64,000 nucleotides of DNA from Escherichia coli (GTDB lineage: Bacteria; Pseudomonadota; Gammaproteobacteria; Enterobacterales; Enterobacteriaceae). The notes below the pieces were generated by a model that ran no database searches, was not told the origin of the DNA, and saw only the letters and a program-made list of their open reading frames with translations. The DNA lies in assembly GCF_001677475.2 (NCBI RefSeq), contig NZ_CP015229.1; one strand, given 5' to 3'. This document shows positions 16,710-17,303 of the stretch, one piece after another; the stretch's first letter is position 1, and every line of letters starts with the position of its first letter. A program made the position numbers and the translations under genes.

Positions 16710-17303
16710 ATGAATAAAAATATTGCCGTGACGGGCAAGGGTGACGCACGTCATGTGAAAAAATTCTGTGATATTCGTGATCTGGTCGTTCTGCGCTTTG
16801 ATAGTGTGAACGTTCGCGTGGTGTATCTGAACGGCGATCCGTGGTTTGTTGGCGCTGATGTGTGTGCGGCGCTGGAAATTAGCAACGTTACCGATGCTGT
16901 TTCAGTTCTGGATAACGATGAGGTAATGACCCTAGCTTTAACCGAGGGTCATTCAGGTAAGCGTGGTGGTGCCAGAAGTTGGAATGTTGTATCAGAATCA
17001 GGTTTTTACAAGTTGATCGCCAGAAGTCGCAAAGCTGTTAATCCTGGCACGTTCGCCCATCGTTTCAGTAATTGGGTATTCAGAAATGTGATACCGGGTA
17101 TCAGAAAAACGGGGGCTTATGGTATCCCGTGGGGCGCATTACAGGATTTTTCCCGCCGCAAAGAGCAATATCAGGTAAGTGCCAGCGAGAAGGGGAGGGA
17201 GCTACAGGCATGTAAGCGCAAAAAGCGTGAGCTAGAGGAAGAAGAAAAAAGGCTGATACGTGAATATCAGCCTGAGTTTTACTTTGGTGAGCGTATTCAG
17301 TAA
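16710..17303 (+). CDS. Bro-N domain protein (antirepressor-like)
   Basis: 197 aa; N-terminal Bro-N-like segment (FDSVNVRVVYLNGDPWFVGADVCAALEISN); charged C-terminus. Confidence 0.6.
   Translation: MNKNIAVTGKGDARHVKKFCDIRDLVVLRFDSVNVRVVYLNGDPWFVGADVCAALEISNVTDAVSVLDNDEVMTLALTEGHSGKRGGARSWNVVSESGFYKLIARSRKAVNPGTFAHRFSNWVFRNVIPGIRKTGAYGIPWGALQDFSRRKEQYQVSASEKGRELQACKRKKRELEEEEKRLIREYQPEFYFGERIQ

Follow-up and report, generated by a model that had tools for sequence, protein, structure and literature searches.

Communication between Gram-negative PICIs and their helper phages is still poorly understood, and AlpA is, to our knowledge, the only regulator of these satellites with experimental support. 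Satellite P4 encodes epsilon, an antirepressor of the C repressor of P2, which is a precedent for the idea, put forward in an earlier note on the DNA described here, that a satellite gene with a Bro-N domain produces an antirepressor directed at the helper. P4 epsilon is a small protein that we take to be unrelated to Bro-N. Among phage proteins, P1-type Ant proteins carry AntA/ANT, and AntC of N15 is a proven antirepressor under SOS control.

Previously, Tommasini, Mageeney & Williams (2023; PMC10111431) described the "helper-embedded PICI" (HE-PICI) and already named a "Bro zone" located after int/alpA. That study catalogues the Bro zone and presents no test of a Bro protein. It also cites PLE CapR, a satellite repressor of the helper capsid operon. 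Capsid-forming PICIs (cf-PICIs) such as EcCIEDL933 combine int, alpA and rep with capsid, protease, portal, connector, HNH, TerS and TerL genes and have no tail or lysis genes (10.1101/2022.09.08.507074). The gene downstream of alpA in cf-PICIs was reported by He et al. to be variable and "of unknown function" (10.1101/2025.02.11.637232).

The window, that is, the whole stretch of 64,000 nucleotides of Escherichia coli DNA that was analysed, contains a 15.4 kb satellite within a helper prophage. The gene in question, bro, lies near the left end of this satellite, among the following features:

~14719..30126, + strand: whole satellite of the helper-embedded capsid-forming PICI type, inserted in helper terL
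13689-14717: 5' part of helper TerL, with the ATPase and nuclease profile positions 2-53
30130-30852: 3' part of helper TerL, with nuclease profile positions 64-283
14888..16111, + strand: tyrosine integrase of the satellite, likely start ATG 14888
16077..16310, + strand: alpA1 (Phage_AlpA, Pfam)
16344..16652, + strand: alpA2 (Phage_AlpA, Pfam), directly 5' of bro
16661..16690, + strand: intrinsic-terminator-like hairpin between alpA2 and bro (CCCCGC...GCGGGG followed by T6), ending 10 nt before the GAGG of bro
17916..18140, - strand: YlcI/YnfO-like small gene (by annotated homologues), right edge of the Bro zone, divergent from the Icd/C4 operon
18535..18739, + strand: P1/P4-type immunity RNA module, with the a1b1 target at 18535-18584 and the C4 antisense RNA at 18652-18739

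The break in helper terL is at ~14718/30127, and TerL profiles match each of the two halves. The satellite has the same orientation as the helper late operon; its core genes are all on the + strand, with the YlcI/YnfO-like gene on the - strand. The att core is ~TCACGAA, and a doubled motif, GTGTATTGC(A/G)CTGTGTATTGC, is present at 14847 and 30023. The motif at 30023-30043 ends ~80 bp before the att core and the one at 14847 starts ~132 bp after it, next to the ~81 bp upstream and ~132 bp downstream of the attP centre reported for the doubled motif of HE-PICIs (PMC10111431). On the 3' side of bro follow the YlcI/YnfO-like gene, the C4 RNA module, DUF4222, an AAA_25 replication protein, SSB and PerC. 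Capsid, protease, portal, connector, HNH, TerS and TerL are all encoded in the satellite, all seven with Pfam matches, and the ORFs of 14719-30126 include neither tail nor lysis genes. The element is an HE-PICI by its split terL, its co-orientation, the succession of int and AlpA and the doubled motif, and it is a cf-PICI by its own capsid-to-TerL set without tail or lysis genes. The earlier assignment of bro to a satellite therefore stands, as the terL halves flank int, two AlpA genes, Bro-N and the replication and capsid/terminase genes.

The window element shares with the HE-PICIs of PMC10111431 the location in, and co-orientation with, a prophage late gene (it occupies their A:Terminase_1 site), the zone order of integration, Bro, replication and late, and the doubled attP motif, as well as domain or segment swapping among Bro-network proteins and C4/isrK-type immunity RNAs nearby. 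Relative to the accessible text of that study, the present locus adds small new details: the swap of residues 48-95 inside Bro-N, a terminator that travels with bro, and no association of bro with the type of helper repressor. The window element has the gene set of cf-PICIs such as EcCIEDL933 but is embedded in a prophage terL instead of a chromosomal att site, and its replication protein is of the AAA_25 type.

In the ORF list of the window, bro extends on the + strand from 16707 or 16710 to 17303 and encodes 197 aa. The ATG at 16710 is kept in four independent loci and the GTG at 16707 is not, placing the start at ATG 16710; the stop codon is 17301-17303. An SD-like GAGG (16697-16700), 9 nt 5' of the ATG, is likewise kept in four independent loci. 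The coordinates 16710-17303 of the earlier note are exact in view of this ORF and the conserved ATG and GAGG, and its Bro-N call is confirmed by Pfam, where PF02498 matches residues 34-129 over profile positions 1-96 of 96 with 61 bits (E 1.7e-16; gathering threshold 25.6 bits). Of 5426 complete E. coli genomes, 225 carry bro. Outside its variable cassette (see below), dN/dS is ~0.07-0.3 against three other alleles, which marks bro as a selected coding gene under purifying selection. The product matches PHROG 2593, labelled "anti-repressor", at 6e-78, and 100%-identical proteins in NCBI and UniRef are named "antirepressor protein" or "BRO-N domain-containing protein". Thus, bro is an already annotated, routine member of a catalogued gene class, and its designation as "antirepressor" comes from database naming. 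No NCBIfam model matched the product, PADLOC defence models gave nothing at E<=0.01, and a sequence search of solved structures gave nothing at E<=1. In the Pfam search, AntA (PF08346), ANT/KilA-C (PF03374), P22_AR_N and P22_AR_C were absent from it.

The terminator-like hairpin directly before bro leaves no space for a promoter of its own, and no promoter-like site was found between alpA2 and bro. Hairpin and bro are conserved together, and this includes the O157:H7 satellite with its different upstream alpA. The adjacency of alpA and bro is kept in relatives of 54% and 47% protein identity, in which the two genes are 5 bp apart or overlap, and the same relatives retain the gene order int-(x)-alpA-bro-DUF3950-...-primase-capsid. 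From the hairpin, the absence of a promoter-like site and the tight alpA-bro spacing, we infer that bro is expressed through transcripts that read on from the int/alpA unit. The region from helper Q (8258-9079) through to bro is co-oriented on the + strand, and Tommasini et al. hypothesise that the Q-antiterminated helper late transcript runs into the satellite (PMC10111431). In the embedded state, this transcript could be a second source of bro. With either source of read-through, bro would be made after helper induction.

Two AlpA-family genes stand in tandem at 16077-16652, each followed by a terminator-like hairpin, that of alpA1 being located at 16334-16353. Paired AlpA proteins can reportedly split excisionase and regulator roles, according to work on EcCIMP1. 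AlpA of P. aeruginosa is a Q-like antiterminator (PMC7969949, PMC9371919). An antiterminating AlpA as an explanation for the terminators was set aside as speculation, because the sequence search gave no link to the P. aeruginosa AlpA complexes: with phmmer, the sole PDB match of both window AlpA proteins was chain 8c3t, "AlpA family phage regulatory protein" (E 1e-4 and 0.026).

To the gene product we assign the following parts, based on an AF2 model for which 89 diverse homologues were used (mean pLDDT 83) and, for the cassette, also on the entropy profile and dS:

Residues 1-25: N-terminal tail, basic, disordered or of low confidence (AF2)
Residues ~26-134: Bro-N core, alpha+beta (AF2)
Residues 48-95, codons at 16851..16994, + strand: hypervariable cassette within the Bro-N domain (entropy profile, dS, AF2)
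Residues 147-186: long, highly charged helix (AF2)

The predicted fold of the Bro-N domain in this model is of the APSES/KilA-N type, a winged DNA-binding fold, and nucleic-acid binding has been reported for Bro proteins (cited in PMC5944126). Ski and Bqt4 use the same type of fold for protein binding, which counts against the DNA-binding reading. The charged helix could be a single alpha-helix instead of a dimerisation element. The closest phage relative that we found is gp30 of N15, with 52% identity over the Bro-N domain and a window-like wing sequence; its C-terminal half is unrelated to that of the window protein, and it is annotated as Ant. We did not equate gp30 with the proven antirepressor AntC, since AntC is SOS-controlled and no LexA box is present near genes 30-32.

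Across 117 full-length homologues from satellites, there is hardly any variation in residues 1-47 and 96-197; nearly all of it is confined to residues 48-95, for which satellites have at least three allelic forms. Synonymous divergence is saturated in this cassette (dS at least 1.8, compared with 0.03-0.5 in the flanks), which points to old divergent segments imported by recombination and not to rapid point-mutational change. The Bro-N gene of a chromosomal PICI combines a window-like cassette with different termini, indicating that such exchange does occur. The type of cassette follows neither the type of alpA nor the att site: Ec042 shares its alpA2 with the window and differs in the cassette, and O157 has a different alpA and the same bro flanks. 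In the AF2 model, the cassette comprises helices 48-54 and 60-65 and strands 72-76 and 90-95 with the intervening loop, i.e. a beta-hairpin at 72-95. By analogy with the helix-turn-helix and wing of Mbp1, the cassette is predicted to be the recognition surface.

We tentatively favour, as possible rather than probable, the explanation that the bro product is an AlpA-coupled early regulator, which uses the exchangeable cassette to recognise DNA and modulates helper or satellite transcription, a function predicted from the features above. The protein would be an early regulatory product of a helper-embedded capsid-forming PICI, encoded in a Bro zone between alpA and the YlcI/Icd/C4 module. Its gene would be transcribed only by read-through, from either the int/alpA unit or the Q-antiterminated late transcript of the helper. 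With its swappable helix-helix-hairpin cassette, the protein would bind a specific DNA target, and this binding would tune helper or satellite transcription, much as PLE CapR does. It would not be an antirepressor matched to the repressor of the embedding helper. As cited in PMC10111431, PLE CapR resembles this model in being a Bro-network satellite protein that acts by binding helper DNA; it differs from the window protein in its homing-endonuclease-derived domain, its host and its satellite family, and it has no sequence relationship to it. A search for the DNA target of Bro-N among repeats in 17250-18320 found only the repeats at the YlcI/Icd promoter, none of them tied to bro alleles.

Somewhat behind this regulator model, and in our estimate rather unlikely, is a true antirepressor that, like P4 epsilon, inactivates repressors, be they those of the helper or those of further resident prophages, and so gives the satellite access to tails and lysis functions. 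This could serve it, for instance, when it has entered a new lysogen or recruits a second tail-donor phage. The earlier note proposed the helper-directed form of this idea and named as its target the helper repressor candidate:

58..429, - strand: helper repressor candidate, 123 aa, HTH, no S24 peptidase domain

This repressor, short and without an S24 domain, probably needs some antirepressor for induction, and non-S24 repressors are typically inactivated by antirepressors (Lemire et al., PMC3121763). The label of PHROG 2593 and many database names speak for an antirepressor, as does the P1 immI-like C4/Icd module of the satellite. In related satellites, P1-Ant-like genes (AntA and/or ANT) adjoin the Bro-N gene; in satellites L008 and L012, the AntA/ANT domains are found in separate genes next to it. 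Antirepressors can also hit non-cognate repressors (PMC3121763), and cf-PICIs often require a second phage for tails (10.1101/2025.02.11.637232), both in keeping with this reading.

The lack of ANT, AntA and P22_AR domains in the bro product argues against this reading. P22 Ant, a proven antirepressor, is composed of P22_AR_N and P22_AR_C, neither of which the window protein has; what P22 Ant and P1 Ant share with it is the "antirepressor" label and membership in the wider "Bro network" of shuffled domains. An hhalign comparison of the Bro-N profile with P22 Ant detected no homology (probability 0.2%, E 0.3), and there is no LexA box 5' of bro, such as marks the promoters of SOS-controlled antirepressor genes of the Tum, AntC and Gifsy GfoA type. 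Nearly one bro allele (98.5-98.7% nucleotide identity between the window and the other two) accompanies three unrelated helper repressors, namely the 123-aa non-S24 HTH protein of the window and the LexA-family repressors of OkiPb01701 (238 aa) and GF31 (214 aa), with pairwise identities of <=31%. The latter two are probably self-cleaving and should need no antirepressor. Moreover, a related Bro-N gene sits in the same slot of a chromosomal PICI at a tRNA-Gly site, and the position of bro behind alpA and a terminator implies expression after the helper has already been induced. A weak further point is an AF2 model of Bro joined by a linker to the 58..429 repressor, which reached a pTM of 0.35 with no gain in confidence, from a shallow block alignment with query-padded rows and without PAE. 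Taken together, the evidence leans mildly against an antirepressor specific for the helper, and is compatible with a broad-spectrum antirepressor that acts on other resident prophages, so that the idea is unproven rather than refuted. Of the earlier proposal, the Bro-N domain and the satellite context thus remain, and the helper-directed function, which rested on the name of the protein, is mildly disfavoured in its helper-matched form.

Several side observations concern the repressor candidate itself. The 58..429 protein has no Pfam match, and YdaS- and YdaT-like genes come after its gene. Over the N-terminal HTH half, it shares 75-78% identity with the N-termini of S24-bearing repressors; the C-terminal halves differ. 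From its sequence, it looks like a cI-type repressor with an exchanged cleavable domain.

To a further reading we assign a low probability. Bro-N would be a helper-targeting module with an invariant scaffold (residues 1-47 and 96-197) and an exchangeable recognition cassette of 48 residues, and recombination would direct the satellite to new resident phages, which it would either derepress, as with P4 epsilon, or reprogramme in their late or tail gene expression. If true, this reading would help to account for the recruitment of tail-donor phages by capsid-forming satellites.

An interference or exclusion factor is similarly improbable. Such a protein would target a helper or competitor protein or DNA and thereby bias packaging or block superinfection, with the cassette as the product of an arms race. 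Otherwise near-identical cf-PICIs differ in few regions, and the gene after alpA is among them (10.1101/2025.02.11.637232), which fits this role, as do the cassette-like variation and the frequency of anti-phage functions in satellites. However, PADLOC yielded no match, and the saturated dS of the cassette reflects recombinational import of old alleles and not the rapid positive selection of an arms race. EcCIEDL933 does not block its own helper (10.1101/2022.09.08.507074), and the synteny with alpA, maintained at 47-54% identity, fits a core regulatory role better than cargo.

A regulator of the satellite's own cycle without direct action on the helper, for example one that assists AlpA in excision or activation or counteracts the satellite's YlcI-like or C4 immunity, is also quite unlikely: the tight, partly overlapping alpA-bro pairing suggests translational coupling, comparable to that of P4 vis-eta (cited in PMC10111431), the invariant N- and C-terminal parts could contact a constant satellite partner, and operator-like repeats are present at the neighbouring divergent promoter, but the cassette does not track the alpA type or att site in Ec042 and O157, and no co-varying cis site for such a regulator was found.

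The main value of this analysis is the caution that the "antirepressor" label on bro lacks support. Should Bro-N prove to determine helper specificity or to trigger resident prophages, the host and helper range of such satellites would be explained, and the protein would also offer a handle for engineering PICI-based delivery vehicles.

Further observations were made in the surroundings of bro. Just downstream and convergent with it, a stretch at 17455-17705 on the - strand appears non-coding and folds better than 200 of 200 shuffled sequences (z -3.8). Of the 840 E. coli genomes that are matched by the query 17304-18300, many have a match to its segment 17461-17701. The stretch ends in a terminator with a 12-bp stem (17496..17469), preceded by an extended -10 element, TGaTATAAT, and may encode an sRNA of ~75 nt on the - strand; Rfam contained no match to it. 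Between this structured region and the YlcI-like gene, a 47-aa ORF (17769-17912, - strand) has a strongly hydrophobic N-terminal half (VLYWLGSLFLFAFLLGNCI) and could encode a small membrane or toxin-like peptide. The YlcI-like gene of the window has no Pfam match, and in satellite L007 its position is taken by DUF3950.

The sequence GTGTAAGACAC occurs three times (two direct copies and one inverted) within 18122-18204, bracketing the predicted divergent promoters of the YlcI/YnfO-like gene and of Icd/C4, and these repeats look like the operator of the satellite's own switch. The C4 antisense RNA at 18652-18739 scores 72 bits against a gathering score of 45. Icd-like ORFs at 18301-18504 and 18791-18964 flank C4/a1b1; relatives have one such ORF, pointing to an apparent duplication.

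In the helper prophage, a ParE/RelE-like toxin gene (5844-6143) and a ParD/CopG-like antitoxin gene (6149-6469) lie on the - strand together with the palindrome CTGTTGACGACAACAG at 6457-6472. The pattern CTGT-N8-ACAG occurs once in the window, at 6457, beside the ParD-like gene. We rejected 6457-6472 as a LexA box, since it is directly upstream of the ParD/ParE-like pair on the - strand and has a GC-rich centre, and it is more likely the operator of that pair. An AraC-family gene (9640-10353), tRNA-Met and tRNA-Arg, in the region 9640-10631 between helper Q and the lysis genes, are cargo in the helper late operon upstream of the satellite. Finally, iteron-like repeats, AAAAAGTGGGG(N)GCAAAA, are located at 21335, 21420 and 21503, just 3' of the AAA_25 gene, and this region (21332-21553) is the probable replication origin of the satellite.
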